From Ginglymostoma cirratum (Eukaryota): a stretch of DNA of 64,000 nt. The notes beneath the pieces are model-generated. The model was not told the DNA's origin and did not search any database. It worked only from the letters and a program-made list of their open reading frames with translations. The stretch covers positions 25,474,110 through 25,538,109 of the forward strand of contig JAHRHZ010000025.1 of the NCBI GenBank assembly GCA_024137785.1, given 5' to 3'. This document shows positions 23,478 through 64,000 of this stretch, piece after piece (position 1 is the stretch's first letter; every line of letters begins with the position of its first letter). Both the position numbers and the translations under genes were made by a program.

Positions 23478-23612
23478 TAACTGAAAGAACTGCAGATGCT
23501 GTAAATCAGGAACAAAAACTGAAGTTGCTGGAAAAGCTCAACAGGTCTGGCAGCATCAGTGAAGAAAATATCAAAGCTAATGTTTCGGGTCTGGTGACCC
23601 TTCTTCAGAACT
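23478..23612 (-). mobile_element. Penelope-type terminal repeat (subfamily B) with partly decayed hammerhead at 23575-23612
   Basis: Reverse complement AGTT-CTGAAGA-A-GGGTC-ACCA-GACCC-GAAAC-ATT-AGCT followed by gatgctgccagacctgttgagcttttccagca, homologous to 45301-45436. Confidence 0.75.
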
Positions 23613-23639
23613 GCTGGTTAGCTACTACTGCCTACATGC

Positions 23640-23852
23640 ACTCACCTATCACCATCCCACCTCCCTTCCTCAGCCCCATCCCTCCTCTCTCTATTTATTT
23701 CAGAGCTCCCCTCCCCCTTCCCATTTCTGAAGAAGGGTCCCGACCCAAAACGCCAGCCTTCCTGCTCCTCTGATGCTGCCTGGCCTGCTGTGCTCCTCCA
23801 GCTCCACAGTTGTGTTGTCTCTGACTCCAGCATCTGCACTTCTTGCTATCTT
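23640..23852 (+). mobile_element. Penelope-type terminal repeat (subfamily A, older copy) with inactivated hammerhead
   Basis: Homologous to 31150-31360; core reads CTGAAGA-A-GGGT-CCCG-ACCC-AAAAC-GCC, so the GAAA box and UH triplet are mutated. Confidence 0.75.
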
Positions 23853-23947
23853 AGTTATCATCGTGTAGTGACGTCTTCTGGCATAGATTGTCAATGAACA
23901 GAAGCAATGGAGTCACTAAGGTCCCAGCATGATATTAAATACAGAGC

Positions 23948-24255
23948 TGATGGTCTAGTGGCATTATCACTGGACTATTAATACACAGAGACAAGTAATG
24001 TTCTGGGGATCTGTATTTGAATCCCACCATGGCAGTTGGCAGAATTTGAATTAAATTAAAGTTTGGAATCAAGAGTTGAATAATGATCATGAAACTGTTG
24101 TCAATTGTCAAACAGAAGACACATCTGACTCACTAATGTCCTTTAGGGAAGAAATTGTGCTGTCTTTACCTGGTCTGGCCTGCATGTTACTCCAGACCCA
24201 CAGCAATGTAGCTGACTTTTAACTACTTTCTGGGCAATAAATGCTAGCCTAGGCA
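23948..24255 (+). mobile_element. Older copy of the same SINE
   Basis: tggtctagtggcattatcactggactatta...tttgaatccc...cactaatgtcctttagggaag...gggcaataaatgct. Confidence 0.75.
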
Positions 24256-24699
24256 AAAATAGCAAATTTGTAATAAAGCTCTATCTGAAATTATGGGCTT
24301 TGATTCTGGAGGGGATAGGGAGGGGATAGTCCACGAGATTTCCTCAGGGATAATGGTCAATTTGTGCCAGAAGAGCAGAGACAGATCCATGGGCCGATAG
24401 AGAAGGCCATATCAATGAAAGTGGAGAGGCAGATGTATGTATTGGAAGTGATGGATATGTCTGGGAGGCAACAGAAGGCGATGTTAGTTGTTGGGGCATC
24501 TATGAGAATGGAATGGATGGATATAGTGGGGAGTTGGAGGGATGTGTCTGGGTGTGGGCCCAGGGGATAATGATGGAGTACACATTTATTTTGAGCAAGA
24601 GCTCAATCCAGGAAATAGTGAGTTAGAAATCCAGTTTTCATTCTGCTCATGAATTAGAAAAAAACAATTGGGTAAAGTGTAAAGATTTGCAATTGCCTG

Positions 24700-25165
24700 T
24701 ATTTGCATGAAAACAAAATTAGCAAATTGCGTTTATAAAACACATTTTCTCTATTAAAAACATTCAAAGGGCTTTATGTAGGAACACTGTGGATCACATT
24801 TTGACATGGAGACACATAAGGAAATTTTCAGCCAGATGAGCCAAAGTTTGGTTGCAAGGGTACAATTTACGGGTCGTCTTTAAAGACGAAATCTTGTGTT
24901 TAAAAAATGACAGAGTTAAAGAGATTGAAAGTTGTATGGAGGAAATTACTGAGTGTAATGTTGAGGGAACCGAAGGTACAATCTCAATGGTGGAGTGACT
25001 AAAATTGTACTTATAACATGAGGCTAGAGGTTTCAGGAGGTTGTTTGGCTAGAGGAGGTTACAGAGATAGGGAGGGGTTTAAGGCCATGAAGGAAATTGA
25101 AAAGAAGGATTTAAATTTTTGCATCAAGGTGTTGCTTAACTGCAAGTCAGTGTAAATCTCTGATT
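24700..25165 (-). mobile_element. L2 LINE 3' fragment
   Basis: ggaggttacagagatagggagggg..aaggccatgaaggaaattgaaa..aggatttaaatttt, homologous to 50490-50875 and 36775-36880. Confidence 0.6.
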
Positions 25166-26309
25166 ATAAGACAAATTAATACCCTATAGTCCCAAAGGGG
25201 TTTGCAACTATTTATTTTTAACTAAATTAATCTTATTTAATTATCTTCTAGCAAACATCAGTGAGACTTTGAGTCTAAATTTCCTGAATTGATACTATTT
25301 TGGTATTGAATCTAAACATTAGATTTCTTCGTAAATGTATGCTCTTGCATGAGCAGGCTGTCCAAGATGGACTATGCAGGCTAATTCCCTGTGGATAAGG
25401 GCCTTTGTGACGCAGTGTCCTTATCTCTGAACAGGAGGTCCAGGTTCATACTTCACCTGCTCTGGAGGTGTGTAACAACATCTCTAAACAGGTTGATTGG
25501 AGAATGTCTATTATTTGTGGAAATACTAAATATAATGAGTTTCAAATTGACCTCAAATATTGTATTATACCAAGTGCTCACTGGACACAATTATTAGTAT
25601 CACTACTGATATTGCAAACATTGGCTATTGATTTCTCTGAATGGTGTCTTGGTGTTCCTAATGCAATGTTCAGAGAAGTACCAATAGTGGACTTTTCTGA
25701 GTGCTTTAACAAACCTATAGCCATGTTTACATTGGAAACACTTCATACCTGATTAGAATGATAACTACCGGATATTTCTTGAACAATTTCTAACATCATG
25801 AAAACTGTAAAAGCTGAACTATTTTGACACCACATAGATTTCTTATCAAGAAAGGAACATATTTCTATAGCCCGTAGGTTATGCAATTTAAACTTTGAAT
25901 AGAAACTTGTGAAATATTAAGTTTCACCTTGAGTTGCTATTTGTCAATTTGGATCCATTTTATTTTCCCAGAGAACAAAATGAGGAATACTGCCCTCCAC
26001 TATTATTAAAGAACTGACCCTACCCTTTAACAGTATATTTATTCATTATAGAGTAATATGAGCAATGGTCAATAGGTGTACAATGCAGAAAGTCTATGTC
26101 CACGACCCAAAGAAAGCAGTGTTGTTGGGGATAACACTTGAGAAATGAAGATGAGGGAATATAAGGCAGAATTACACTTAGCCACTGCATTGATTTCCCT
26201 TAGTAGGCACTTGAAAACAAATCAGTACTGGATTTGTATCAGAAATGAACTGAAAGCTTTTATCTTAAAATGTGACACCAACGTCATGATTTTCTTCACA
26301 ATTATGATG

Positions 26310-27715
26310 AAAATGGCAGAAGCACCCAAAATTGGAAGGCCCAGTCCAAAGACAGTACTACTTATTTTTATGGGGTGGGAATGGGGAAGGCTCAAGCTTT
26401 GCATATAGAGGTTCCTGGCTATTTAAGTTAGCAACTGCCTCCACTCAGATCAGATTTTGGTAGCCTAGGAGTATGAAAACCAAGATATGCGGAATTAGAT
26501 CTGGACTTTGTGTAATTCTTTGATTAGCCAGGGTATCTCTTTAGAAAGGTATGGTAACCCTTTGGGTATGGTTCTGAAACACCTTTAGGGTATATGTAAG
26601 GTGCCCTTCGGGAGCGGTGAAGTGGCTCTTGGAATTGTTAAAAGTGGGCTTGCGTGTATGATGCAAGTTGCATAATCACATTAACCGTCAAGCTCATTGA
26701 AACCGTCAACAGATCTGCCAAAATCAAATGTCAAAAGTGTGAAGGGGACCTGTCAAGAGCAATCTGTCAAAAATATCAAGAGACTCTGTCAATGGGAGCT
26801 AATAAGTTGTCATGGTATTTAAAAGTCTTGTCCTTTAAATCTTTGCAAATAAATGTACAGTGTTAAAAAAATGTTTGCCATTTCATTGTCTTGACAAATG
26901 ACTGAGAATTTCCATTCCTAGATTCTTGCCGCTTTACTGATTTCACAACCATTCATTATGATGTACAGCATGCTTCTATTTTACAGTTTGATTCATATCT
27001 ATAGATGTTTACAGACTCTTTGAAATGGGGTGATGAATTCCAATGTTTGCTCTTGTATGGGATTGAGCAATTGAATGAAATGCTTGTTGTTATCAGGCTT
27101 TATTTAATTGAATATAAATGGAAAACAAAACTCATCCATAAAAAAAAAATGTACTCAATGTGGTGAAGTCTGCAATACATATTTAGAAATTTATTTTATA
27201 GAATTTTATATAACCTCATATCTGCATGGGTCCTAGGTGTGTACTGTGTGAGTTTTTGTGTAGATACAAGGCCAAAGGTTGATGGGTAGGGAGGAATGGG
27301 CTGGCATGAATTGGAACTAAGTTAGCATAACGGTTATGAAGGACCACATAAATGCAGGGTGGCTGCAGGCGAATAGTTTGGCATGGGGATTGGGAGTCAT
27401 GGGGTCAGCACCGGTCATGAGGTGACATGATTGGCGTGGGTCAGGGAGGGGGGGATGTGTGGGTTATGAGGTAGCGTGAGGGTTAGGACTGGAGGGAAGC
27501 TGCATGATTGATTTAATTTTAATAATTTTGGACATAATGCCAGAGCCCTGATGCAGTCCTTCTGCGCAGCCCAACTCCTCAGTCAGCATCCTCCAGCGTA
27601 TGAGCGAGAATCTGATATCGAGGCCACCAATTTCAAAAGTCAGGTTTGCAAAGCCAGGAATTCTACTGACTCTGTGCACTCAACTCACAGATGAAAATCA
27701 AGGCCCAGAAATGAA
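26310..27715. repeat. Unclassified ~1.4 kb interspersed repeat, copy 2 (same orientation), just downstream of the heyl stop
   Basis: Same shared blocks as copy 1. Confidence 0.7.
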
Positions 27716-28085
27716 AGAGGACTGGAAGGTCACTAAAAATTGAATACAAATCTTGTTCTACATTTTCTATCCAAGGTACATGCTTGGAACAAGCCTGGTT
27801 TGAGAAACAAAAGCACTTCTGTAGGGAAGGGTGGAGTAAACTATAGGAAACACAACACTTCATTTATCAGACTAAAAACAATTGCTTCATAGATTAGAAT
27901 GCTAGAGGAAACTTCTGCACTTATAAGATGCATAGAAATGAACTTTAGTTATGTTTTCTCTCATTTCAATATGATTACAAACTGCTGAAATCTATCAGGA
28001 TATTTTCTGGCACAATATACTTTTTATATCACAATATATCACCATAAAAAAGTGTAGCTAAAATATTTCCCTCATTAGGCTAGAT

Positions 28086-28843
28086 TCAGAAAGCCCCAAT
28101 CGCTGTTGTCCATGACCTCTGGGATTTGCGAGCGCTCAGGTTGCTTGTTTGACTAGAGGGATTGTGTCGGAAGTGTGATACAGATGGAAAAAGTCCTAAA
28201 GAGCCAGGGATAGATGCAGTTGGGTTTGTTGTATGAATGGTGCTGGTATTGGAAGCTGGTGACAGCAAGGGTGAACTAATTTGTGGAGATACAGCAACAC
28301 CAGTTAACATTTTGTTCGTTGAGCTTACATTGGACAGAACACCAGGAAATGTGCATGTCATGTTGGACAGCACTCTATGAATAGGTGACGCCAGGTTTGA
28401 CAAGAAATTAAGGCTAGATGATGTCATGTTTGGGAGAAGGTTGTGTGTGGGTGATATCACTGAGGATGTTATTTTGTCAAGAGGAATTCCTCTCAGAGAT
28501 GATGCGGAGCATGCTAGTGCAGAGCCAGTAAGGAAAGCTGGGTTCTGCAGAGTATCCCTGCATTGTAATTGTCCTCCTTCTGTTGTCTGTGGGAGTAAAG
28601 TAGTTAATTGGTGGTGTGGCCAAGTCCAGTTTCGATGGATCAAGGAAGCCGGTGCCAATGGTGCAGGCTCTATTTCAGACACATAGTTGTTGAGATGAGA
28701 TACCAGACGGTCTTTTAGTGGATCAGTATTGTCATGGCCTTGAAATCGTTCAAATGAGCTGAGATACCTTATGACTTCAGCAAGACATTCTCTGAATCCC
28801 ATACTTCTGTAATCCACAGCAAGCAAGTGAGGATCAAAATAGC
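28086..28843 (-). CDS. heyl: heyl coding exon 5: Orange domain, S/T/P-rich region and C-terminal [11 protein letters not shown]
   Basis: Acceptor tgttttgttgacAG at 28845-28844 inside ORF 28086..28895. Orange motif [18 protein letters not shown]...[11 protein letters not shown]; ends IGAF-TGA. Confidence 0.95.
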
Positions 28844-31800
28844 CTGTCAACAAAACAGCATAATGATAAGTACAGACTAGGCAAGGCTTGGTCACTGTCT
28901 AATGTTGTTACATTTTAATAAGCATTGTAGAGTGAGCATCTACAGCATTGATTACAATTGTTCTTCAATGACTATGCACTTTTATAAAACCCATAACGTA
29001 ATCATTTAAAAATAAATCTTTCTTCTGAAAGTTCATGTTTATCAATAGATGAAACATAAATCTAGGGAGGTAAGTTTGATAACAGGATAAATATGGACAG
29101 ACACCAGTTAGACAGCCTCATAAAATATAGCTTTATAAGACAGAGATCAGGTACAAATTTGAACTAAGGCGATTTGTTACAACTAAGGTTTAAATACTGC
29201 AAAAGACATTTAAAGGAAAAATTCAGACTTACCAATAAATCAAAAATACTATATATAAAAGTGAATCTGCTATAACTGAAAAAAAATACTAAAAAAGCTA
29301 GAGTGTAACTGTTTAATGTACTGAACTGGCAGTGATCTAGGAGTCACTTATAAACTAAGAACAAGGTCTGGATTTTACCTACAGCAGTGAAGTGATGTCA
29401 CTCACTGCTGACATTGCAGGAAGCTGCCTAGAAAGATCTCGTGATCTTTGTGGAGTGGATGTCACCATTACCAGTGCTAATTTCATTCTAGTATCAAGCA
29501 TAGCGTATCCAGTGATATCTGAAACCAGGCTATGCAGGTAATCACATTGAAGTATTCTCACAGACAGCAAACCACAAAATTTAAAAGCACTGATCATTCT
29601 TCTGTTGTTACTCAGACTGCAGCAAATGTAATAGTGATTGGCATGCGTAAACGGAATTAGAGCTTAAATTTCATTAACAATTTTTTAAACTATTAGTTTA
29701 AATATCTGTGGAATTTTAGATGTTCATGGAGAGACTTGACATTCCAGAAATATAATGTTAGGTTTTTAGTGCATATAAGTTGTTCAGCTATGATTAGGAC
29801 TTGGTGCATTGTTAAAAACCCAGTTACATGTTAGTCAACAAGCTGCATGTGAACTTGAAATGATGTAGTGAGCTAATAAGCCTGTTAGGTCTGAGAAATA
29901 AATATTGTTTGAACTGTGTAGATATTTATCTAAGTATTCAATCAATCAATTACATCTGGATTTAGATGTAAAATTATAATTGTCACAATGCACATTTTGA
30001 CCATTGTGACATACACTTAGCATAACCACTGCAGTTCAGGAAGTTAAACTTCAAATTCACAGCCCAAGGCTATCCCAAAAAGGTGATCAGTCAGTTAAAT
30101 CATGTTATTTTACTTTAGTTACAATAAATGGACACAATGTGCCAGGCATGATACAACAGACTGTGATGAGAGATTAAACCATTGGCTCCTTCCTAGAAGG
30201 TCATGATTTTAGCTCCTTGGTTCGCTTGTCACTGAACGTATATTTCAATGGAGGGCATTTTAACTAATCCTAAACCAAAACAACCAAAGCTGGACATTAT
30301 TTTAAGCTTTAATCTGCATTGACAAATTTTAGTCTTTGAAAAACATCCTCCAATTACAATTTTTTGATTTGAAACATTTGCCATATTAATGGGGTCCCTG
30401 AATGAGACTGGGGATTCATTACAGCTAAATGCCAAATTTGTATCCAATTTTCTGGCTTGGCTCGACAGCTGCTAGAAACTGGGTTCCAACCTGTCCAATC
30501 TCATTCCATGTCAAAGCCCTACAAGTGAGCAGGCTGGTAAACTAAACTGAATATAAGTGATAAGAGTGTTCTCACATAGGGACCATCCAGTTTCTTGCAC
30601 ACAAGATATAATCGTTCCAGAGACTAAGCACTGACATAATTAATTTATTATATTTCCTAGTGGAGTGAATGTTAAAAGTAAAGTACTGCTATGTTCTTGC
30701 AACCTTCTTTGCATCTATCAACCGAATTTTAAAAACAAATGACATGCTACTATTATGGAAGTATTTACTGCCTATATTTTCCATAGCTTTGTATTGACCT
30801 ACTAATGTATGACTGTACTCTGTACGAACACACCCTAGTCATAAAAGAGACTGGCATTGAAAGGTGAATGTTTGAACAAAATATTTCAAGACAACAGTGG
30901 CCTAGGTTAGTTTTACATTAAGGTTGACCATTGACTATAAATTAAATGACATTAAGATCTCCAATAAAATAATCCAAATCCATTAAACCTTTCAGTTTCA
31001 AACAACGCCATCTCCTATCTACCAACATCATCCCGCCCCCTTGACCTGTCCGTCCTCCCTGGACTGACCTATCTCCTCCCTACCCCCCCACCTACACTCA
31101 CCTTTACTGGCTCCATCCCCGCCTCTTTGACTTGTCTGCCTCCTCTCCACCTATCCTCTCCTCTATCCATCCTCTATCTGCCTCCCCCTCTCTCCCTATT
31201 TATTTCAGAACCCTCTTCCCCTCCCCCATTTCTGATGAAGGGTCGAGGCCCGAAACGTCAAGTTTTCCTGCTCCTATGATGCTGCTTGACCTGCTGTGTT
31301 CATCCAGCCCCATGCTTGTTATCTCGCATTCTCCAGCATCTGCAGTACCTTTTATCTCTGATACAAAATTATTCAGAATGGTCTCCTCTACAAATCTATA
31401 AATGTGTCATGCAAATTGGAACACAAGGATAGCAAGGAGCCATCTGTCTGTTAAGATTGCTCTGTCCTTTATTAACCATGGCATCTTCACCTTTTAAATC
31501 CCAAATCTGCTTCTTATTAGCGATAGGTCAGTGAGGTCAATACTGGGAGAAAGAAAATTTTTCAACACTTCCTACTCATCAACAGCAGCAAATTTTCTAG
31601 GTCAGATACATCAATGGCTAATTACTATGTAAATATTTCTCTTTTCCCAACCACTGATTTTGACCTGGATTGCAGCAGAACACTTCTTCCTCTTGCACAA
31701 ATACGATATGTTAACACCGATAGTAGATGACTATCTTTACAGTCTGTCCAAATCAGATTTGCCACTGAAGTTGGATTTGTACGACAGCTGTAGCAGTGAT

Positions 31801-43445: not shown

Positions 43446-44621
43446 TGCCAATGACCTTTGTATGATTGCCAGGGCTCTGAATCAGAATTGGAACTTAAGC
43501 TTGCTGAGAATAAAAGGTCAAAAAAGTGAGTAACAAGTTATCCAGAAACGTTTCTGGTAATCGAAACGGCAGTGCAGCACCATCCCTGTGGCAATTGCAA
43601 TAGATTTTGAACTGATCTAGCAACTCAAGGCTGTGTACATATGGCACAGTGGGCCATCTCAGCAGCAGCGGAATTGTACTTCAACACAATGTGTAACTTC
43701 ATGATCAGGCATATTCCTTAGTTTGCAATTACCATCAAATCAAGTGACTAACTCTGGCCAAATGAAGAATGGAGGAGGGCATGCCAGTTGCAACATCAGG
43801 TATGTAAAAATGAGATGTCGACCTCGTGAACCTACAACATAGGACTACTTACATACAAAATGGCATAAGCAGGAAACAATAGGCAGAGCTAAATTATCTG
43901 AGCTCTGCACTGCTGTCATAGCCAGTCATGAATGATAGTAGATAATTAACTCACTGGAAGAGGAGGCTCCACAAATATCCCCATTCTTAATCACCCTTGA
44001 GTCCAGCACAGTGATACTGTTAAGGCTGATGCATTTGTGACAAGCTTCAGCTACAAGTGCTCAGTGGATGACCCATTCTCAGCCTATCCTGGAGACCCCC
44101 AGCATCACAAAAGCCAGTCTCCAGCCGATGTAATTCAATCCATGTGATATCAAGAAATGGCTGAAGGCTCTGAATACTGCAAATGTAGTTCCCTGACAAC
44201 ATTCACTCAATAGCACTGAAGATTTGAGCTGCAGAACTTGCCGCTCCCCTAGCCAAGCTGTAAAAGTACACCTACAGCACTGGCATCTACCCAGCAATGT
44301 GAAAAATTGCCCAAGTACGTTCTGTACAAAATAAGCAGGACAACTTGGCAAGCAACACCGCATCAGTTTACTCTCGATCATCGGTAATTGAATGTGTCAT
44401 CAACAGAGCTATCAAGCAGCATATCCTTAATCTGCTCACTGAATCCCGGTTTGGGTTCTGCCAGGGAGGGTCAGCTCCTGACCTCATTACAGCCTTTGTT
44501 CAAACATGGATAAAAAATTCTGAATTTCAGAGGCAAGGCTGTATTTGACCAAGTGTAGCACAAGGGAGTCTAAAGTAAATAGGGGAAAAGACATCTGCTG
44601 CAAAAGAAGATGGTTGTGGTT

Positions 44622-45436
44622 ATCCAAATGGCAGGTGCAACACCTGCCCATTTACCTCCTCCCTCCCCAGTATCCAAGGGCCCTAACATACCTTCCAGGT
44701 GAAGCAACACTTCATCTGCACTTCCCAGAATCTAGTCTGCTGCATTCACTGCTCACAATGTGGTCTCCTCGACATTGGGGAAACGAAGCGTAGACTTGGC
44801 AACTGCTTTGCAGAACATCTATGTTCTGCTTGCAAAAAAGACCCTGAACTACCTGTTGCCTGCCACTTCAATGCACCACCCTGCTCCCTGGCCAACATCT
44901 CTGTCTCTGGCTTGCTGCAGTGTTCCAGTGAACACTGTGCAGTGCAGTGAACCCCAACATAATCTGGAGGAACAACACCTCATCTTCCACTTGGGGACCA
45001 TACAGCCCTCTGGAGTCAATACTGAGTTCAATAATTTTAGGGCCTAAACTCTCCCATGTCCCAGCTCCCCACCCCACACACCAGGCCTTGTTACCACATA
45101 GCCTGCCATTACACACCCCCTGTTGTTAGTCACTAACAGTCCCCATTAACAACAATTCACCTTCCCAGCCTGATCGTTAGCAACTCCTTTGTCTGTCCAA
45201 CTGTCTTTCTCTCTCTTTGGGCTCAATCCTATCATTTACTCCCTACTCCACCCACCTCCCTATTTTCTGCATATGATCTGACATTTTCCCAGCCACCATC
45301 AGTTCTGAGGAAGGGTCACTGGACCCGAAATGTTAATTTTGTTTTCTTCTTCACAGATGCTGCCAGACCTGCTGAGCTTTTTTAGCAACTTTGTTTTTGA
45401 TCCCGTTTTACAGCATTGTTCTTTTGGTTTTTATTT
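44622..45436 (+). mobile_element. 5'-truncated Penelope-like element: GIY-YIG endonuclease remnant, 3' region and hammerhead
   Basis: ORF 44699..44950 (F.CTSQNLVCCIHCSQCGLLDIGETKRRLGNCFAEHL) matches the PLE GIY-YIG/CCHH pattern. TSD AAGATGGTTGTGGTT at 44607-44621 and AAGATGGTTGCGGTT at 45437-45451. Confidence 0.85.
45301..45338 (+). ncRNA. Minimal hammerhead motif (subfamily B) at the 3' end of a Penelope element
   Basis: AGTT-CTGAGGA-A-GGGTC-ACTG-GACCC-GAAAT-GTT-AATT: 5-bp stem II; C-to-T change in the ACGT palindrome. Confidence 0.65.
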
Positions 45437-46499
45437 AAGATGGTTGCGGTTGTTGGAAGTCAGTCATCTCAGGTCCAGAATATCTCAGCGGGAGTTCCTC
45501 AGGATAATGTAATAGGCCTAACTATCTTCAACTACTTCATCAATGACCTTCCCTGCATCATAAGATCAGAAGTGGGATGTCCATGGAGGATTGCACAATG
45601 TTTCTCACCATTTGTGACTCTTCATATATTGAGGCAGTCTGAGTCCAAATGCAGCAAGACTGGACAACATCCAGGCTTCGGTTGACAAGTAGCGAATAAA
45701 GTCATGCCACACAAGTTTTAGTTAATGACCACCTCCCTCAAAAGAGGATCTGAACATCACCCCATGACATCTAGTTGCTTTACTATTGCTGAATTCCCCG
45801 TTATTAACATCATGGGTTTATTATTGACCAGAAACTGAACTGGACAAGCCGTTACAAATATAATGGCTACAAGAGCGGGTCAGTGGCTCAGAATCATGCA
45901 GTGAGTAAGTCAACTTCTGATTCCCCAAAGCCTGTCCACCATCTATAAGGCACATGTCAGGAGTATGATGGAATAATCCTCACTTGCCTGGATGAGTGCA
46001 GCTCCAACAACACTCAACAAGCTTCACACCATTCTGGACAAAGCAGTTTGCCTAATTGACACCTTCAAGCCATTCACCATCTTGACTTGGAAATATATCA
46101 GCATTCTTTCAATGTCTTCGTGTTGAATTCCTGGAACTCCCTCTCTAATGGCATTGCAGGTCTACTTACAGTGATTGGATTGCAACGGTTCAAGAAAGCA
46201 GGTTAGCATCACCTTCTGAAGGACAACTAGGGCTGGGCAATAAATGCTGGTCATCCAGCGATACTCATCTCCCATGAGTAAAGAAAAAGAAAGAAAGATC
46301 TTCTTATGGAGTTACTGCAGATTAGTTGCCCTTTTAAATCTTGTTGCTGCAGCAGCGTGGAGAATAGTTCCACTTGGTTTACCTGAGGGGTGAGTGCACG
46401 TTGGGTGGAATGTCTGTAATTTTGCATAATAACAGTGTTGGTGCCTTAGTTACACTTTGGTGTCTCTATTAGCATATCCATGAGGCTGCACCTGCTTCT

Positions 46500-46640
46500 A
46501 AATAAAAACCGAAAGAACTGCAGATGCTGTAAATCAGGAACAAAAACAAAATTGCTGGAAAAGCTCAGCAGGTCTGGCAGCATCTGTGAAGGAAAAAGCA
46601 GAGTTAACGTTTCAGGTCCCGGTGACCCTTCCTTGGAGCT
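46500..46640 (-). mobile_element. Penelope-type terminal repeat (subfamily B), hammerhead core decayed
   Basis: Reverse complement CCAAGGA-A-GGGTC-ACCGG-GACCT-GAAACGTTAACT followed by the shared tail; highly similar to 23478-23612. Confidence 0.75.
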
Positions 46641-46907
46641 CTGAGGTAAATCAATCTAGTAAACCTTCTCTGAACTATTTCAATGCTTTTACATCCTTTC
46701 TTCCCAATTACCTAGTGTTTTCTAAATTCACAGCTTGAAGCTCCTTAATGATCACCTTTCACATGACAGGTGTCTAGCTAATTGGCCTGTAGTTTCCTAA
46801 CACATTCCATTCAGGGATGGAGGAGTTATTTTTGCTACTTTCCAGTCCAATGGAATTTTTCTTGTGCCAATTTAATTTTGGAAAATTAAAACAAAACTAA
46901 TGCACCT

Positions 46908-47039
46908 GATTTTCTGATGAAGGGTTTAGGCCCGAAACGTCAAGTTTTCCTGCTCCTATGATGCTGCTTGACCTGCTGTGTTCATCCAGCCCCATGCTTG
47001 TTATCTCGGATTCTCCAGCATCTGCAGTACCTTTTATCT
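46908..47039 (+). mobile_element. Short 5'-truncated Penelope-type insertion (subfamily A) with perfect TSD
   Basis: Flanked by CTAATGCACCT at 46897-46907 and 47040-47050; interrupts a CR1 ORF2 fragment. Confidence 0.85.
46910..46945 (+). ncRNA. Minimal hammerhead ribozyme motif, intact core (subfamily A)
   Basis: TTTT-CTGATGA-A-GGGT-TTAG-GCCC-GAAAC-GTC-AAGT. Confidence 0.75.
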
Positions 47040-47740
47040 CTAATGCACCTATTACCTCTTTGGCCACCTCTTTTAAGACGCTAAGATGAAATCCATCTGG
47101 ACCCAAAGTCTTGTCAGCTGGCATCTCCATCAGTTTGTTTCTCAGTTCTTTTCTCCTGAATAAAAGTTCACTAAATTCCCCACTCCCTTCCGATTCCTGT
47201 TGTACGGCTGTTACTGTAAATTTTTTTGTGTTCTCAGTAGTGAAGAGAAAACTAAAATATTTGTTCAATTCTTCCACTGTGTCCTTATTATCTACTCTTA
47301 ACTCCCTATTCTCACTCTACAGTGAACCAGCTTTCCTAACTAATTCCTGTTTTAAACCTGGAAGTGGGAGAATTGGAGACAGGTTGAGGACGTGCTTGAG
47401 ATTTTAAAATTTTTATATCCCAGCTGATCACGATCACCATTTTTGTAATTTAAATTTAAAGTAGAGAAATAATTTCTTCTAATAGAGGAAATGAGAACAA
47501 GGAAAGCATAAACCTAAAATTAGAGACCAGTTAATTTGGAATGAAATTAGGGAACATTTTTTCACACAGTGATTCTGGGAAATCTAGACCTCCTTCCCTC
47601 ATAAAGCTGTGGATCCTGGGTCAACTGATATTTCCACAACTGTGATCAGTAAATTTTTGTTAGGCAGGATATCAAATAAGATGGATCAAAGGTGAGTGAA
47701 TAAAGATGATGTACAAATCAGCTATGAAATAAATAGATTG

Positions 47741-52185: not shown

Positions 52186-52784
52186 AAGTAACATTCACTA
52201 TGATGATATCATACAGGCTTGCTGGGGGATCAGCTTACAATCTGTAACAAGACAAATCATCCAGGTCTTCCTCATATTCTCTATCCTATAATTATAACTT
52301 GTATTTAGTTGCTATCAAACAACAGCTACACTTTTTTGAAGACGGGAGCTTGTTGCACGACCAAAGGCTTTTCCTCACAACACTACACCAGACAGGCCTT
52401 CGAGCTCCCAACCAGGAAAGGGGATGGTGGCAACAAATCGACATGATACCTCAGACAACCCAATTAGTTGTCATGCAGAATCATCTTATAACATAGTGGC
52501 AGGTGGTGTAGACTCCACTTTGCTGCCTCCCTCATGCTGGCTGAGATGGATGAATGAAGATATCCCCAACAATAGCTTTCAGAAGGCTACTCCAGACAGC
52601 TGGGGGTTGGAAACAACAAACTGGCAGGACAGAACCTCAAAACAAGACTCAGCAAGGCGGAATCTCCAGCTGATGATAAAAAGTAGTTCAGACCTCTAAG
52701 AGATGCACAGCACCAATAGTGACTGCAAGAAACTGGAAGCCTAGTCAGTCCAAGACAGTTACAGTTTGCATTGGTGTTGATGAT

Positions 52785-53445: not shown

Positions 53446-56400
53446 GTTTATAGGAATAGTCCCAAACTGAAGTTCAGCCAGAAAGTAAACCGACATTAGA
53501 GTCTCCTTGAATAAAATTGAAATCCTGGTGGGCAAGGGGAAAACTTTAAAAACTAGCACAATTTTCAGGCTGTGAATGCTAGAAGTAAGCTCACATCAAG
53601 TGTCATGACTATTGCAAGGTGGCACCATAAGATATAGTTGCACTAAGGGAAATCAAGGCCTGAACACAAGTTTAGAAAGAGTTCACAGATCTAGGAAGTC
53701 ACAAAGCCAGAATTAAAGAGATAGAGAGGCAATTTGGAAGCCTGAACAGACAAAATCTACCAAAAGATGAAGTTAGGAAGTATTGAGGTTGCTGAAAACT
53801 ATTACTTCAACCGCAGTAAAGACGGTGAGCATTCATTTAAACAGCACACAGTGGGACTCATTCAGAATAAAATGTGACAGCAACAGGGGTTATATTTAGT
53901 TACAGACAGTGGTTATCTTGTCGGAAAAGTCATTAAAGTCACCAAATTTATCTTGTAGAACCATAGAGAGTGCAATTCAATAAAGCTGGTAAGAAAATGT
54001 CAATTGCTGTAAAGCTGCAGGCAGCCAGATTCATTCAGTAAAGCTAGTAATGAAATACAGTTAGCAGGAATCATGTACAGAAGCTGAAAGAAAAGCAAGA
54101 ATGCTCAATTTTTTACCTCAGAAGATAGAAATCCTTCATTTTACTTGCAAATGGAAGGATTCCCTTGTTTTGTATGCAAAACTGCAGGAGAAATCATCCA
54201 TTACAGCAGTACACAGTCATTGCATCACTATATTGCAGAGGAATGGGGAATCCATATATAATTTCATTAATGTTCTAATCATGAAGACTTAAAGTCTTAT
54301 AATTATAAGAGATATAATTATTGATGGAATTGTTGATGAGTCTTTATTAAAATTATTAGTCAATAGGAAATTTTACTCTAGAGAAAGCCATTCAAAAAGT
54401 GAGTAAAGCAGAGGTCCAGAAGCAGCACAAGTCAGTTCTAAAAGGAGAGGGACAACGTTCTCACATGAGATCAGCTGAATCTGTTCAGTTCTTAGGAGTC
54501 AGAACTCTCACAGACACATGTGAGAAACCAATGCTACAAGTAGGTCAGACACCAGATATTAATAGTCATTGTCCTCATTTTGGAGTGCAAACTTGACAAA
54601 TTTAATGCTTTATCTGTAAAACAATAGGTCACTTTCCAAAGATGTGCTGAAGATAAAATATGGTCTCAGACCAACAAAGAATCAGGTAGCTACTCACACA
54701 GAGAAGATCATGAGGTGGAATGCAATTACAATAGAAGAAAAGCCAATATTTCCCCGAGTTATTATCAGATAGCATCTTTTGGTTGAATAAGCACTGCCTA
54801 CCATTAATAATAGTGCAATGGCATGGTCCAGAAGACATAGCACATAATATCAAAGATATACGACAATCAACTATCCATACACAAGGAATGTGACACAATA
54901 GAGAACTTATACATATTTCACAAGCAAGAATTCATATTCTTGAGCATGAATATGTGTTTTGACCTGAATCTTTGTTAAATAGTGAAAGGAGTCAAACCTG
55001 TTAATATTAAGAAACCATGGGTCAAAGCAAAATCAGTCATGGAGCAATAGGTGAAAGAATATTTGGTTACTGAATAGCCAGTCATGGAAAAACAAGTCAA
55101 ATGACAACTGGTAAAAGATTTTATAGGGTTCTCTAGACTCATGGCAGAAAATAAATAGAAAATAGCATCCTCTGAGAGTAGCTATGTTGGCATAAAAGAA
55201 ATTGTTCCCTGTGGTGAATAACGTGGAAACCTGCATCTGTACTGGATTGGCAGAAATATTTTCCGCTGCTGTCAACGCTATAGAGAATTCAGAATCAATA
55301 AAGTTTGCAAGGAAACAGAAATGATGAGATTGCTGATGAGCAGCATACCCTACTTGAGCTTATTGATGAATCTTCAATTGACACAATTCAGAGAGCAATG
55401 CAGCTTGGAGAACAAACAGTAATGACAGAGTTAAATCCAATGTCAGATGCTCAGGTGATACCGACGATGTAATTTCAAACAAAGAATTTCATTTCCTTGT
55501 CTTCTCAGTTAGAATTTTCAGTACCAGTTGACCTTCCAAGCAAAAAGCAAGCTTCAGATAGTCCGAGAAAGTGAGAATACTTATTTCATTAGTAATGCAC
55601 TCACAGGTAATGAAGGAGCCATCTGAATCACCAAATTGAAATTAGAGGTGTGTGTACTTCAGCACAAATTTATCAGCCAATAGAATAGAGTAGAAATCTG
55701 CTGACACAAATTGAAGAATCCATGGAAGCACCAATGGAAAAGCAATATCCAAATTCAATATCCAAAGATTCGGGGCATGGTCAAAAGGAAATTGTCCGGT
55801 TCACAGACCTAGCATACTGCTACGAAGAAATTACCTGGCTGTGATTCAGAATACCATGAAAAGAAAGTGATTATTTCAACAGGGCAATCAGTTGAGTGAA
55901 AGAAATTTGTGAAATTAATGGTCCTTCAGACATTACAATGGAGCACTTGCTTGTTTCAGTAGGACAGACATCTTCAGTGAAACAAATTCAAGAAATGAAA
56001 GGTCTTCCAGGTAAAGGGATTTTCAGACCTCACACTGTCACAAAAAGAATCAAAATCAACAGTATCCAACCCCGAACTTTACCATTTTCTCATGTCCAAA
56101 GAAAATAGGCTCTGAGCGAATAGTAGTTAAACCACTCGATTGCTTGAGTTTTGTTTTGAGTATTGTTTGAAGTCAGAGACTTGGAGGCATATTATGTCAT
56201 GGTAAATTTAATTATAGAGATAAATAAGTGGATATTTACAATGGGAAACAAGCTTGGGATGGTGGGGCTGGTGGTGGAGATGTTGTTTGAGAGTGTGAGG
56301 GCATGGAAAGATTAATACAGAGGAGTGTCTTAAGCACAATCCACAGGCTTGCTGGGAGAACAGTTTACAATTTTGAACAAGTAATATCTATGTCTGGTCT

Positions 56401-56919
56401 GTCTCTGTAACAATGTCTATCATATTAATGTGACCTGTATATAGTTGCTACCAAGCAATAAATTGCATCTTGTTTCAGACAGCAGCCTCTTCTCATTATA
56501 TGACTTAATGGTTTTCCTATGCCAGACTAAACCAAGCAGGCCCTGTAGTTTCCTACAGGAAAGAGATGATGGTGACAAATCTAACAGAAGACTCATACAA
56601 CATGATAAACAGTGATGATCATCTTACAACACTGTTATCCATAGAGAACAACATTTCCATTTTTTTTCCATGTATAATATTAAGTAACTGTATGAAAGGT
56701 ATTTTCAACGGCAGCACTCCCAGGTAGAATGCAAGGAAAATCATTCACTGGTGATGAGCAGTTTCTTCAGAATGAATGTCCTAGTAAATCTGATTTTACA
56801 ATGGGAGACTGAAGTGAGAAATCTCCTTCATATATATTACATTTCTTTCTTTAAGCAAGCTTTAAAGCACAGCAATAAGCTAATTTTGCCACCTCCATGC
56901 TTGGTGTGGAGGCTCATTG

Positions 56920-58142
56920 CTGCAAGATATGGACAATATCTAGGTTTAGGCTGACGAGTGGCAAGTAACATTTATGCCACACAAGTAGCAGGGAAAGACA
57001 CTCTCCAACAAGAGAGAATTTTTCCTTTTTCTTTGTTCATGGGATGTGGATGTTGCTGGCTAGGCCAGCCTTTATAGCCCATCCCTCATTGGTCAGAGGG
57101 CAGTTAAGAGAAAACCACATTGTTGAAGATCTGGAGCGGTGTGTAGACCAGACAAGGTGTAGATGGCAGATTTCCTTCCCTAAAGGATATTAGTGAACAA
57201 GATGAGTCTTTACCACAATTCACCATTATGCCAGCCCCTCCCCTTTAGCCACCTGATAGTCCACCTAACGTAGCCATCTAATCTAGCCATTGACCCTTGA
57301 CATTCAATGGCATTACCATCACTGAATCCCCCAATATCAATATCCTTATGGTTACCATCGACCAGAAACTGAACTGGACTAGTCAAATGAATACAATGGC
57401 TACAAGAATAGATCTGAGGCTTTGAATCCTACAATGTGCAATTCACCTCCTGACCACCATCTATAAGGGCCTGTCCACCATCTATAAGGCACAAGTCAGG
57501 AATGTGATGGAATACTCTCTATTTGCCCAGATGAATGCAGCTCCAAAACCACTCAACAAGCTTGACACCTTCTTGGATAAAACAACCCATTTGACTGGCA
57601 CTATATTCACGTACTTTCACTCCTTCAACTACTCATTCTCAGTAGCAACAGTCTAATGAGTGTTAGTGTGGACCACCTACAAGAAGGAGCAGAAATTCCC
57701 TTAGACAGCATCTTCCAACCCCACAGCTAATAACATCCGAGGTTACCATGAAGGTGCAGCCTTCTCAACCTTGCCTCTCACCTTAGGCTTGAAGACCATC
57801 AGATTAAACTTAACACTAGCACATCTAATGAGAGAATAGACATATGGTTCTCTGGAATTATGGCGACTTTATCTTTCCTTCGAGTATGATGGGGGCAGGA
57901 AATACATCAAACACCATCAACTATTACTTCTCCTCCAACCAGACTTCATAATATATAATCGTTCCTTCACTGTCGCTGGTCAAAATCCTGGAATTCCCTC
58001 CCTAACGGCATTGTGGGTATACCTACACCACATGGACTGCAGCAATTCAAGAAGGCAGCTCACCACCTCAAGGACATTAAGGGATGGGCAATAAATGCTG
58101 GCCCAGTCAGCGATGCCCTCACACCATGAAAGAAAAGAAAAT
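56920..58142 (+). mobile_element. LINE 3' portion of the same family, with an inverted SINE fragment at ~57020-57225
   Basis: gaccagaaactgaactggac, gtgatggaatactctc and tail gggcaataaatgctggcccagtcagcgatgccc are shared with 45826-46290. Confidence 0.75.
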
Positions 58143-59399
58143 GGGAATGCACTCATGAGATGGGCCACATCATCGCATCAATTCTGATACTCAGGTTCCA
58201 ATTGAGGTGCTTTAAATTAGAATCCTCTCATTGCAAAACGATCCTTTAGATTTCACCAGAGTATTTCAGATAATATCAATTAGCCTGGAGTTAAGTCGAA
58301 GAAAATCAACCATAGTAACCACATCCTGACTGGTAATTCTGGAATATATTTGTGCTCGTATTTGTTGGAAGGTAGGACTAGGATCAGCTACACCCTGCAA
58401 TTAAACAACTTGTAGGCAATAACTGTCAAAACTCTCAGATGATTAATGGATATTTGAGCTAGATACAGGATTGTGTCCTGTGACTCTGGAACCGAAGACT
58501 AATACCTCACAAGAAATGGGGTAAAGTGAAAATGGCAAGAAAATCCCACAAAGTTAAATTCTGTAATTTAAATTCAAAATCTTTACATCTGGAAATGCTT
58601 TTGAATTGGGTAACTGAAGCTTGATGCTTTTTGTTCATAGATTGTAGTGAAATGAAGCCATGTGACATACTTGATCAAAGAGGTTTAGGAAAATACAGTA
58701 ACAAAAAGTAGCTCACTTTAATCAGTGTTCTGAATCCTTCTGAATCAATTCTATTGAGAAATGATCAGCAAGAGGCAAAAAGAGATTGTTAGCCTTGTTT
58801 TATTTAATATCATGCAGAAACAGCTATTCTTGTTCTTGCTGAAACAAGCAGAAATATTCTGAAGCTAGAGTGAAAGAAAGAAATATCTTGATTTGTCTTG
58901 TCAGAAGAAACAAGATAATTTTCAGAGATGTGCACTACCTTATTTGCATTGGAACGTTTTATCAGATTAAGGGCACTATCTAAATGCAACTTCTTCATGC
59001 ATTGTGTATCACAGATAATACTTCCGTACACAACATGGCGCAAGTGCAAGAAAGACAATGTGAAACTATGGTCGTGACAACTGAGTGATGCCAGATGTTA
59101 CTCAGGTTTACTGATTTCCAGACAAATTTCTCTTTTACTTTGCTGAGAAGAAGAAACATGAAAACCCAGCATAGCTTTGCACACCATCAGTAATCACACC
59201 CATGCAGGTGTGGTTAACAAGCACATAAAAAGTGAAAGTGATGAACAATTAGCGTCCACTTTTTGGAAAGGACTGGTCTGATCTCAAATTGTTGATTTCA
59301 GTGTATTATCCACTCTGACACATGTCTTGTGATTTGCAGTTGAAAATATTTCATTCACTTTCATTTATGTGCGAAGACGAGTCACTGGCTCATTATCAT

Positions 59400-59716
59400 C
59401 AAATCCCTACAGTGTGGAAACAGGCCCTTCAGCCCAACAAGTCCACACTGCCCCTCAGAGCATCCCACCCAGACCCATATCTCATAACCCAACTAATCTA
59501 CACATCCCTGAACACTATGGGCATTTAGCATGGCCAATCCACCTGGCCTACACATGTTTGTGACTGTGGGGGGAAACCAGAGCACCTTGAGGAAACCCAT
59601 ACAGATGCAGGGAGAATGTGCAAACTCCACACAGACAGTCACCTGAGGGTGGAATCAAACCCAGGTCCCAGGTGCTGCGAGGCAGCAGTGCTAAACATTG
59701 AGCCACAGAGCCACCC
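59400..59716 (-). mobile_element. Near full-length HE1/V-SINE-type SINE
   Basis: Inverse homolog of 49950-50138 plus tRNA head (gtggctcaatgtttagcactgctgcctcgc...gggtttgattcc). Confidence 0.8.
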
Positions 59717-60297
59717 TGATCTGGCAGTGCTTCATCCTATACTTCTTGTCAGTGATTCTTCACCACTGCCTTCCACTTTCACAAGCAGAGTAAGGAGACA
59801 GAGCAGAAATCGGACATGCGCTGTTGACAACGGTCCAGAAATTCCATTTACTGTCAGGAGTGGGACATCACATTTGGTGAGTTTGGTGAGTTTGGTGATC
59901 AGGTCAGGTACTGTTAGAGATTGAGATGTGGAATTGGTGGAGTCAGGCTTAACACTAACTTTTCCTGGACAGCTATGAAACTTATGTGAGTCACAAACCT
60001 CTGAATTCTCTGACATAAGGGGCTTTTCCAGGGTGTTTCAGACGAAGGGGAATTACATCTTGGAAAATTTCCTGAGTAATTCCCTTGGAGCCAGCAGTTA
60101 GAAATTTTGCACAAACTCTGTATGCTATCTCAGTCTATGCAGCTTCAATGTCTCCTTGGTCACTGGAAATCTGGATTTCATTCTGAACCACAAACTAGTT
60201 ATTGGGCCATCTGAGTTAACCCTTTACCATATCTGAACACGCTCAAATTTAAATACAGCAACTCTGGCATAAGTAAATTCACAGGACCACACATTAT

Positions 60298-60435
60298 TGT
60301 TCTGAGGAAGGGTCACTGGACCCAAAACATTAGCTCTGTTTCTCTCTCCACAGATGCTGCCAGACCTGCTGAGGTTTTGAGCCATTTCTGATTTTGTTTC
60401 TGATTTTCAGCGTCTTCAGTTCTTTGGATTTTTTT
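60298..60435 (+). mobile_element. Penelope-type terminal repeat (subfamily B), hammerhead decayed
   Basis: CTGAGGA-A-GGGTC-ACTG-GACCC-AAAAC-ATT-AGCT then cacagatgctgccagacctgctgag. Confidence 0.75.
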
Positions 60436-60774
60436 TGTTCAGTGTAGAAACAAGAACCTTGGAGCAGGAGCAGACCATTCAGCTCTTTTAGCCTGCTCCA
60501 TCGTTCAATACGATCATGGCTATTCATCCTCAGTTCCTCAGGTTTTTTTCACACTTTATTGTATCGCATTTAATTTTAATATTTTGCACCACATTGGGTT
60601 TGAACACCAAAATACTTGGTAATTAGATGCACCAGGTCAACTCTGCAATCAAAATTTTTGTTTGAATGATCAAACCCAGTTTGGGAAGCAATTTGTTAGG
60701 AATTTTGATTTGAAGAAGATGGGAGAATGTGTTTACAATTAACAAGTTGTCAAGAACACAATGGAGCCTTGTGT

Positions 60775-61105
60775 TCATAGTTAATTAAGGTATCAGTCTT
60801 GGCAATGAGTCAAATGTTATGAGTTCAAACTCCTCAGACTTGGAGCACAGAATGTAGCCTGATACTTTCATGCAGTCCAGGCTGAGTGCGACAGTTTTGG
60901 ATGAGAGATTAAAATGAGGTTCTGTCAGTGGTATAAAAGATCAATTGAAAAGCAAAGGAATTTCTTAGTGCACTGGTTAACATTTATCACACAACTAACA
61001 TCATTGAAACACTGACTATGCTTCAAAAGTACTTTTATGGGCTGTGAGGCAGTTTGGAATATCCTGTGGTTGTAAGAGGCACTATATTAATGCAAGTTAT
61101 TTCTT
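60775..61105 (+). mobile_element. Deu-domain SINE, decayed
   Basis: gagttcaaactcctcagacttggagcacag...ggatgagagattaaaatgagg...cttcaaaagtac...actatattaatgcaagtt. Confidence 0.55.
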
Positions 61106-61639
61106 TCATTTCAATTTGAATCTTGTTTAAATTAAATTCGAATTTTCAAAGGAAGACAAAGATACAGACTAGCTGATGTGAAACGTAAGAGAGGAAATTG
61201 ATGGAAGGAAAGAAAATGGTTCCCTCTTTTAAAAAGTAAAAGTGAAGATACATTCCCATTAATCGAGAACATGATTGAATAATGCAACAATCTATGATAT
61301 GAAAGATTCATAGTTATGGACTTTGTCTGACCTCTGTAATTAATTTACCATCTTTCACCTTTTCCAAGTACATTTTGGGCTCGATTGCTCCATTTGCAGT
61401 TGTAGTGTGCTGCCAAATGAGTTTCATGGCATTTGATTGCCATGGCCTGTGGTGAATTTTCTTATGCAATCTTTTGCTTTTCACCTAATTAATTATACCA
61501 CTAAGTTTCTCAGGAAATTGCATTCCAGAGCAAGATGGAAATGTTCACCCCTTGCAAGCCCTTTGGCTTACATGCCTCTGGCACCGTGGTTAAGCCGAGT
61601 TGCACATGTCATACATTTCAAGCCAGGAACTACGTCTCA

Positions 61640-61900
61640 ACCTGTGGTGCTCAACTTTGAAAATACCTCAGTAGAACAGCACATTCACTCCTTACTTCCA
61701 GGACAGGGATCAGGAGGTGTGGGTGGACAAAGTGTTAGACAGGAGGGCAGAATGTCTACAGCTGATCACTACAGGGGGCAGTGCCAACAGACCTAGATGG
61801 CCTGGACAGAAATTGCAGCATGCGTCTGTGTCTTGAAAGGAAGAGACTCCTCAGGGTGATGTAAGAACGACAATAATCTTCTGAGCTTAGTAAGGATAAG
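61640..61900 (+). mobile_element. Myb/SANT-like remnant, probably from a PIF/Harbinger-type DNA transposon
   Basis: 61797-61895 reads MAWTEIAACVCVLKGRDSSG*CKNDNNLLSLVR, resembling AW..IA..V....R...QC.K..NDL; upstream LNFENTSVE; frameshifted and stop-containing. Confidence 0.4.
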
Positions 61901-62959
61901 TAGGGCCATTTTCACTCTGCTAACTCATGCTCAAGGGCAGCACTCAGCTTAACCCACTGGCACATGCTACAGCTTTGACCTTGATGTAACACAGAACCAT
62001 ACAGTCGCAAGTCATTCCCTGCCTGACTGATAGATTGACTTATTCAGTGCACCTCCACATGCTGTCTGCTTCTCCCTTTCCTCTAAGAATAAAACTGCAG
62101 AAGCTGACAAGCCTGTTACTCAGTGCTAAAGTCAACATGTGCTAAGAAAGCAACATGAAATAGACAGAGGCTTGCAGCCAAATGAGTTCTGTATCCATGT
62201 CAGCACAAAAGCATCCTGCCTTGTGCATGAAATGTGCAGTTCTTCATGCTTGAGAAGTGAGTTGGCAGAAATGAGTAAGTTGCAGGTATTTGCCAGCTGC
62301 AGGCCCGAAGCAGTGTCTGATTTGGTTCAAGAGCAAGCATGATGATATTGGGAGGCTGGTAGCTTGCTAATGTGGAGTTGCATGGGTGATGGGTTAAGGA
62401 GGATAGTGGTTGTGCACCATGCAGGGACACTGTGCAGAACAGACAGTGCATGATGGCTGGCCCACACAGTCAGTGAGCTGCAGCTGCCAGGTACCCGCTC
62501 TGACTTAGCTGTTTGGAATTTGTGCTGTCTAGCTTCTTGATGCAGGAAGGGAGCATCGCAAGTGGGAGGGTTCTGCTCTGTAGAGAAGATAAATGAAGGT
62601 TTGGTGAAAGGGGAGTTTGGTGAGAAGAGAAGAGGGGTTCTATTCCCTTTTCTTTGTCTTCAGCATCCAGGTGACCGGCAGTTGTAAAGCTGTCATGAGA
62701 AGGGAGGGTGGGGGTGGTTAGGGTTTGATTACATTCAACAGAGACATGGCAGGGAAAATATAAGCTCAACAGGGGTTGGGAGGCAGCACAGGAAAAGTGT
62801 CGGACTGCCTTGGCACGTAAGGCCAGGGAAGTATTTCTCCCATGTGGTCGTTAAAGTAAAATTGGTCTTTGGATTAAGAATGTTTGAAGCATAAGAAAAT
62901 AAAGTAAGCTCCCTGGTATACGTTTAACATTCTTTAACCTCGGGGAAGTAAATAGAAAG

Positions 62960-63891
62960 ACATGTATTTAAGGAGAAGTCATGGCAAAGCAGCTTAATTC
63001 GGTGGAATGCTCCTCCTGTGCGATATAGGAAATCAGGGGCACTATCAGTGTCCAGTGTGAAGATATAGGCAGGAGGTTTCTCCAACTGAGGTTACAGGAA
63101 ATCCACATTTTGCCCCTGGAGGTTTGGCTGGAGTCACTGTGGAGCATCTGCAAGGCTGAGATCTTTGTGGATAGCATGTAGATGAGGTGGTCACACCACA
63201 GGTGAAGAGTGCAGAGGCAGAAAGGGAATGGGTGACCGCCAGTTCAGAGTAAAGCCTACAGGCAGGTGGAGCAGGAATCCCCTGGGCTATCACGCTCTCT
63301 AACTGATTTTTTTTTTATTGAATGACTCCAGGACATCCTAAACAGGAAGGGAGAACCACCCAATTTCATGGCCCATGTTGGTACCAATGACATAGGGTAG
63401 AAAGATTAGGGTTAATAAATATATTTTAAAAACAGGACCTCAAAGGTAGTAATGTCAGGCTTATTCTTGTAAATGTTTGGAAGGTTGGGAATAGGAGAAA
63501 AGACTGAATGTGTGGCTGAAGGGATGGTGTAGGAAGGAGGGATTTAGATTATTAAGGCATTGGGACCAATTCTGGGGAAGGTCTCTTTTGTATAAACTGG
63601 ATGAGTTGCATTCCAGCAGGACTGGGACCAACATCCTTGCAAGGTATTTGCTCATCATTGGGTGTAGGGATTAAATCACGATGGCAGGGGAGTAGGAACC
63701 TTGCTGAGGAGACAAGATGGAAATGAAAAACAGAAAAGTGGAAAGCAAAAGTGGAAGATAGAGGAAACAAGTTCTAACAGTGAAAAGGACCATAGTACAA
63801 AAAAAGTGCTAAAATGTCAAGCAGGCAAGTCAAAAGATGCTATATTCAAATACGGAGAGCATTCGCAATAAAGTGGACAAATTAGCAATGC
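62960..63891 (+). mobile_element. Decayed CR1 5' portion: ORF1 (Cys motif and SGNH-esterase-like region) and start of ORF2 endonuclease
   Basis: ECSSCAI near 63004; NVWLKGWCRKEGFRLLRHWDQFWGRSLLYKLDELHSSRTGTNILAR at ~63507-63645; YSNTESIRNKVDKL at ~63843-63885. Confidence 0.7.
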
Positions 63892-64000
63892 AAGATAACA
63901 AGCATGGGGCTGGATGAACACAGCAGGTCAAGCAGCATCATAGGAGCAGGAAAACTCGACGTTTCGGGCCTAAACCCTTCATCAGAAATGGGGGAGGGGG
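63892..64000 (-). mobile_element. Young Penelope-type repeat (subfamily A), running off the window edge, interrupting CR1 ORF2
   Basis: Near-identical to 46914-47007 and 31217-31325. Confidence 0.8.
63954..63989 (-). ncRNA. Minimal hammerhead ribozyme motif, intact core (subfamily A)
   Basis: Reverse complement reads ATTT-CTGATGA-A-GGGT-TTAG-GCCC-GAAAC-GTC-GAGT. Confidence 0.75.

Follow-up and report, generated by a model that had tools for sequence, protein, structure and literature searches.

Scattered 3′ end-pieces of two Penelope-like subfamilies with minimal hammerhead motifs in a 64-kb stretch of the Ginglymostoma cirratum genome

A 64,000-nucleotide stretch of Ginglymostoma cirratum DNA (assembly GCA_024137785.1, contig JAHRHZ010000025.1, positions 25,474,110 to 25,538,109; hereafter the window) carries repeated copies of a hammerhead-ribozyme motif. 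We conclude that these copies are very probably scattered, 5′-short 3′ end-pieces of two subfamilies of Penelope-like elements (PLEs), likely of the Neptune clade, that carry the known minimal hammerhead ribozyme (min-HHR) and are decaying neutrally; the motif is predicted to cut only as a dimer, weakly and likely with the assistance of protein, in the element's own RNA. Two insertions in the window are flanked by clear target duplications, one insertion holds both an endonuclease remnant and a hammerhead, relatives have an empty site where one copy stands, and the CpGs of the motif have decayed.

Hammerhead motifs and their decay

A first-pass annotation made from the letters of the window had listed eight motifs of the form CTGANGA-A-GGGT..RCCC-GAAAC-GTH. 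All eight sites exist and stand far above chance. A relaxed-pattern scan (up to three substitutions) gave five non-overlapping best matches in the window, against none in any of 30 dinucleotide-shuffled versions, and a profile made from the sites recovered all eight at E 1e-33 to 1e-43. Six of the listed positions are those of C3, but two minus-strand sites, listed at 23575 and 46602, had been placed near the far end of the motif, their true C3 being 23608 and 46637. The variation of the stem II loop, the alternation of GCCC and ACCC, the two types of stem I and the GUC at 31259 are all as had been described. When the sites were scored base by base, the motif was complete at 31232(+), 46914(+) and 63985(−) and damaged at the other five, which makes "eight ribozymes" an overstatement. 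These three sites and 45305 keep the catalytic boxes CUGANGA and GAAA as well as U16.1 and H17, and 23608 keeps the boxes too (the lesions are given in Table 1). Stem III had been described as the palindrome ACGT; it has that form at four sites and is altered at the other four (CpG-decayed forms at three, ACGC at one). The extra A between positions 9 and 10.1 is found at all eight sites and the G10.1-C11.1 pair at seven (G-T at 46637). Nine changes break the motif, and six of them lie at its two CpGs, a pattern expected from neutral decay of methylated insertions. The density of eight motifs in 40 kb also holds, but it describes the most crowded 40 kb; beyond the eight, the first 23 kb has only four older degenerate copies (4328+, 12396−, 12937+ and 14685+; profile, E below 1e-4).

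One could envisage that the motif is shared repeat sequence only, free of ribozyme-related constraint. An Rfam covariance-model scan of the window, which returned no hammerhead match at E up to 5, would fit this possibility, as would covariation among nine window copies, which did not rise above that of shuffles (62/500 for the covariation score). The same core pattern was found at 120 or more metagenome loci whose flanks are unlike those of the window, and a scan of viral contigs with this pattern gave 0 matches. The 120 listed loci, 80 of them taken with wide flanks, held 123 matches in 81 distinct contexts, of which 80 had enough flank. In these 80 contexts, which come from other organisms, stem I, left unconstrained by the pattern, pairs over 2.96 bp on average versus 2.00 when shuffled (maximum 2.29 in 1000), a test that is inflated by kinship among the rows; N17 is not G (that is, it is H) in 77 of the 80. 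The covariation that the first-pass annotation had looked to is thus seen in stem I of these partly related contexts, above all 1000 shuffles, but not among the window copies. A PLE coding match (tblastn, P0005) was present in 28 of the 120 listed loci; 25 of these have the end of the endonuclease on the same strand as the motif, 73-173 nt upstream of it. Three listed loci have two matches, in each case head-to-head. The identical core amid unrelated flanks and the covarying stem I largely refute the absence of constraint, and the motif agrees with the published min-HHR descriptor; we regard such an absence as exceedingly improbable. Unlike flanks, stem I pairing and an upstream endonuclease together indicate that the motif is a widespread PLE hammerhead rather than a local oddity.

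Penelope-like origin and inventory of the copies

The Penelope-type origin proposed for the motifs is supported by the metagenome loci and by a single target-duplicated insertion (44622-45436) that encloses both the broken end of a GIY-YIG endonuclease and a hammerhead. A protein of L043 that passes the GIY-YIG cut-off shares 41% identity (E 8e-23) with the endonuclease fragment. Seven longer homologues of the fragment were returned and all were scanned with Pfam; two match GIY-YIG weakly (P0003, E 0.0066; P0005, E 0.00095). L080 has a weak RVT_1 match (E 0.00034, below the cut-off) upstream of the same motif. The Neptune-type CX2-5CxxC linker and the CCHH arrangement were both recognized in the window fragment, the linker's first cysteine lying beyond the truncation, and the elements are likely to belong to the Neptune clade. 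The minimal type-I architecture of the hammerhead is likewise supported, the motif having all four min-HHR hallmarks described in PMC4209133. The "partly non-autonomous family" of the first-pass annotation was not demonstrated; the copies are 5′-short pieces of an endonuclease-carrying unit. An old PLE linker-region fragment was also noted at 8810-9049 (+) (tblastn to P0004, E 8e-9).

Alignment of the copies confirmed the two subfamilies. In subfamily A, the 31232, 46914 and 63985 copies are 96% identical to one another and 23727 stands at 77%; in subfamily B, the 23608, 46637 and 60302 copies show 78-84% identity to 45305. A and B are 71% identical over 89 nt, and no reading frame after the motif is conserved between them. 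Target duplications are clear at two of the copies examined, and none is clear for the 31232 copy or the 23608/23727 composite. Neither a tandem arrangement of pseudo-long terminal repeats (pLTRs) nor head-to-tail tandem hammerhead units occur in the window; the copies are dispersed, and close pairs lie on opposite strands.

Two such close pairs, each a B(−) and an A(+) copy head-to-head, are 23608/23727 and 46637/46914, with C3 spacings of 119 and 277 nt. Under uniform placement two pairs of this kind would be improbable (P about 0.001, in a test chosen after the fact), and they are in line with a review that reports insertion of PLEs next to older copies. Around the first pair, 23619-23630 and 23852-23863 are identical at 7 of 12 positions and differ by transitions only; they could represent a target duplication, now decayed, belonging to the A copy. 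Where 46637(−) is broken at its 5′ end, the plus strand of 46637-46648 resembles the beginning of a B motif, which would look like an inversion of the first box; the likeness covers only 7-8 nt and may be due to chance. Both subfamilies keep GATGCTG/CAGCATC and an inner GCTG/CAGC (e.g., 31280-31346), which may form a nested hairpin close to the 3′ end and could serve as a binding site for the reverse transcriptase (RT). When these two helices were scored in nine window copies, 92-93% of cells were paired with no two-sided change, a result not above shuffles, which leaves the downstream structure a candidate. In subfamily B, a splice-acceptor-like pyrimidine run ending in CAG follows just after stem I at 45360-45366 and 60351-60356.

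Table 1. Repeat copies and host gene in the window (positions of the whole stretch)
Feature	Position	Strand	Remarks
Older degenerate B-like copy	4328..4433	+	Profile E 7e-7; absent from the first-pass list
Older degenerate copy	12312..12396	−	Profile E 6e-8
Older B-like copy, begins inside motif	12937..13041	+	Profile E 4e-13
Tail-only remnant	14685..14757	+	Profile E 8e-5
Subfamily B 3′ end-piece	23474..23618	−	Core 23608-23579, boxes kept, palindrome lost, stem III decayed (ACAT); starts ~10 nt before C3
Older subfamily A-type end-piece	23680..23852	+	Core 23727-23754 broken (G12>A and U16.1>C); head-to-head with B copy
HEY-family (bHLH-Orange) gene, start to stop codon	28086..41454	−	Five coding exons; Hairy_orange E 3.9e-12
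Young subfamily A insertion, 354 bp	31009..31362	+	Intact core 31232-31259, predicted cut after 31259; in HEY-family intron 4, antisense
Subfamily B insertion, 815 bp	44622..45436	+	15-bp target duplication, one mismatch (44607-44621 / 45437-45451)
Broken GIY-YIG endonuclease C-terminus	44624..45047	+	In-frame stop, frameshift, CxxC linker remnant, CCHH-type cysteines/histidines
Hammerhead core of the 44622-45436 insertion	45305..45334	+	258 nt after endonuclease stop; catalytic boxes and core intact; stem III ATGT, pairs by wobble only
Subfamily B end-piece	46499..46645	−	Core 46637-46607 broken, first box CCAAGGA, C11.1>T
Young subfamily A insertion, 132 bp	46908..47039	+	Exact 11-bp target duplication (46897-46907 / 47040-47050); begins 6 nt before C3; core 46914-46941 intact
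Subfamily B end-piece	60299..60436	+	Starts at motif; core 60302-60331 broken (G12>A), stem III ACAT
Young subfamily A copy	63884..64000	−	Intact core 63985-63958; runs off window; without last ~30-nt tail

Insertion age, RNA reads and the 5′ ends of the copies

In two relatives (X11 and X15), whose flanks differ by about 4% and 6.5%, orthologous contigs run across the site and lack the 31009-31362 insertion, indicating that the insertion is young. The first-pass annotation had left the activity of the family aside as possibly uncharacterized; this empty orthologous site shows recent insertion for subfamily A. Reads were mapped to positions 28500-31500 of the window with an 85% likeness threshold. 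The summed contig depth on the repeat was about 2-4 × 10^5 times that of the single-copy flanks, which is not a copy number and gives the order of magnitude only. That order agrees with the four A copies in 64 kb, and it supports the high copy number that had been proposed, at a rough estimate of order 10^5.

In a poly(A) run (X23, about one-quarter of the run), 51,185 of 12,895,792 records (0.4%) fell on the repeat, in both directions equally, and nine in ten of these family reads continue into unlike sequence; a second run (X24) gave 47 of 6,985,526. Runs X17-X20, whose word shares were small, do not enter these results. The organism of the two runs may not be the species of the window, and the strandedness of the libraries is uncalibrated, the last exon of the HEY-family gene having zero RNA depth in both. 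The 0.4% share of RNA reads is lower than the 1.2% of window bases that lie in subfamily A. A joint from 31350 to 31239 (48 reads) lies away from the cut site and was not accepted as a circle. No pile-up of read ends was seen at 31259, where the first-pass annotation had proposed to look for RNA ends, or at any other place in either run, at about 22,000-fold depth, which fits the end-piece account; standard RNA-seq is a weak test for ends left by cleavage (fragmented libraries, one-fifth threshold).

In all eight copies the sequence on either side of the cut site is retained, and their templates were therefore likely uncleaved RNA. In the mechanism that we propose from the PLE literature, the RT-endonuclease of the element would nick the DNA and initiate reverse transcription downstream of the motif, at a distance of about 100 nt. 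Two start points ~30 nt apart, by analogy with the anole element (PMC11167929), would account for the optional tail, and the 63985 copy fits such a two-start-point scheme in ending without it. The RT would then copy through the uncut hammerhead and stop early, leaving 5′-short copies. Selection on the motif would probably be limited to master elements, host transcripts would carry the stubs passively, and cleavage by the hammerhead, again following the anole element, would be assisted by protein.

Several results weigh against this account. Pfam gave no match to the window's endonuclease fragment itself, and the window lacks an RT. It also holds no coding remnant of subfamily A, whose sole ties to PLEs are its identity to B and the motif. 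The clade call rests on cysteine motifs rather than on an RT tree. Finally, of the seven copies whose 5′ end can be seen, four begin no more than about 10 nt from C3, and RNA depth in the bin holding the motif is 6-10 times that of the two bins upstream; random truncation explains these two findings poorly.

The starts at the motif edge could mean either that stem II stalls the polymerase or that the RNA begins there. If the latter, the copies of 130-150 bp would be non-random: the element's RNA would begin at the 5′ edge of the hammerhead, and reverse transcription, primed internally on the first terminal repeat, would run off the end. In a variant, the short copies would be a small non-autonomous family of their own. 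We put forward the two versions, taken jointly, as a tentative possibility. The edge starts fit them, but only seven copies are concerned and detection by motif favours copies that reach it; moreover, stem II could simply stall the RT. Opposite-strand joints fit as well, 11 of the 12 among the 15 joints listed of 267 having one side at 31225-31233, although such positions may mark where local alignments begin. While RNA depth jumps at the motif bin, the summed DNA contig depth of the two relatives changes 1.4-fold or less; these DNA runs are from other species, however, and contig depth is a poor measure. Internal initiation of reverse transcription near the 5′ part of the RNA was shown for the anole PLE (PMC11167929). 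Run-off would refine the end-piece account and not replace it. Carried further, the hammerhead would mark the 5′ end of the element RNA instead of a processing site, and run-off reverse transcription would mass-produce recently active, hammerhead-headed mini-insertions of 130 bp, leaving half-ribozymes of order 10^5, some of them switchable by the element protein in host transcripts; we think this unlikely.

Hammerheads in host transcripts

The first-pass annotation had also suggested that host transcripts carrying half-ribozymes might pair in cis or in trans. That such transcripts are cut, so that host RNA is regulated, appears very unlikely to us. The X23 reads, with their frequent continuation into unlike sequence, do indicate that many host transcripts carry the family; three cores are intact, and the stems I of the same subfamily are compatible over 3-4 bp. 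However, only the 31232 copy lies inside the HEY-family gene, and it is antisense there (no search for further genes was made); the two intact plus-strand copies (31232 and 46914) are 15.7 kb apart. Pairing of stem I in trans reaches 3-5 bp for most A-A and B-B combinations but mostly 1-2 bp for A-B. In a nearest-neighbour model without tertiary or Mg2+ terms, the active dimer was predicted at -3.5 to -7.1 kcal/mol versus -17.2 to -18.6 for two folded monomers, a disadvantage of 10-15 kcal/mol, and the best monomer fold would bury the first box against the cut-site strand. The reads, as described above, show no ends accumulating at the cut site. Published min-HHRs, moreover, cleave weakly or need the element protein (PMC4209133, PMC11167929), and eight of nine Xenopus dimers were uncleaved (bioRxiv 10.64898/2026.07.22.740005). 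Cutting of host transcripts is thus unsupported.

In the commonest form of the family (from the loose ends of reads at 31264), stem II and its loop are fully self-complementary, so that intermolecular pairing could involve stem II besides stem III; a swap of stem II is likewise preferred when 46914 and 63985 are folded as two strands. Apart from the elements, 18253-19108 and 26421-27232 form an old duplicated stretch (65% over 526 nt, with flanking pieces), one copy of which lies downstream of the HEY stop codon.

Comparison with known systems

Judged by its sequence, the motif is the min-HHR of Cervera & de la Pena (2014), and an association known since 2014 is extended here to one more genome. 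New here are the young 31232 insertion and the RNA reads on both strands without ends piling up at 31259. As it stands, the finding is of little consequence. The young, intact subfamily A is nevertheless a usable handle on what PLE hammerheads do, since copies that begin at the motif edge and span the cut site argue for insertion from uncut RNA. Cutting of host RNAs in trans would matter much more if true; nothing here supports it.

No shark hammerhead study was found in the literature, though subscription papers, repeat databases and supplements beyond reach may include some, and the two searchable supplement files of the PMC4209133 study contain no shark term. PLE-derived hammerhead repeats are described in one chondrichthyan genome (bioRxiv 10.64898/2026.07.22.740005, where one of nine frog dimers was cleaved), and Penelope-like elements have reportedly expanded in the introns of the whale shark.

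Cervera & de la Pena (2014, PMC4209133) described min-HHRs in the pLTRs of metazoan PLEs, among them Neptune, Poseidon and Xena elements of fish, and found low activity even as dimers. The window's motifs share with theirs the type-I topology, the palindrome at 15.1-16.1 in place of stem III, a short stem I, the extra base between 9 and 10.1 and the G10.1-C11.1 pair. Common to both are also several consensus families per genome, a majority of single motifs from truncated PLEs, and opposite-strand pairs, which lie 100-700 bp apart there. Stem II is 4-5 bp long here, unlike the 7-8 bp of the Schistosoma families, and the copy number, by our rough estimate of order 10^5, is likely far above the 4,000-9,000 reported for coelacanth and Xenopus.

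The non-LTR (long terminal repeat) retrozymes of the bioRxiv study likewise have PLE-derived type-I hammerheads, but they form tandem arrays, whereas the copies here are dispersed monomers with target duplications. Like the endonuclease-containing (EN+) PLEs of the Neptune clade (Craig et al. 2021, PMC8557442), the window's elements have a C-terminal GIY-YIG, a CCHH motif and an upstream CX2-5CxxC linker, as well as inverted 5′-truncated neighbours and a tail; unlike them, the window is without an RT, and the first cysteine of the linker is cut away. The fragment, with the CxxC linker of Neptune/Nematis, differs from PAc, the Poseidon-clade PLE of Anolis carolinensis (Frangieh et al. 2024, PMC11167929); a further difference is that A and B have no conserved reading frame after the motif. 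As in PAc, however, the hammerhead lies about 100 nt before the 3′ end and is followed by an optional ~30-nt tail, RNA-seq ends are absent from the cut site, and insertion would proceed from uncut RNA.

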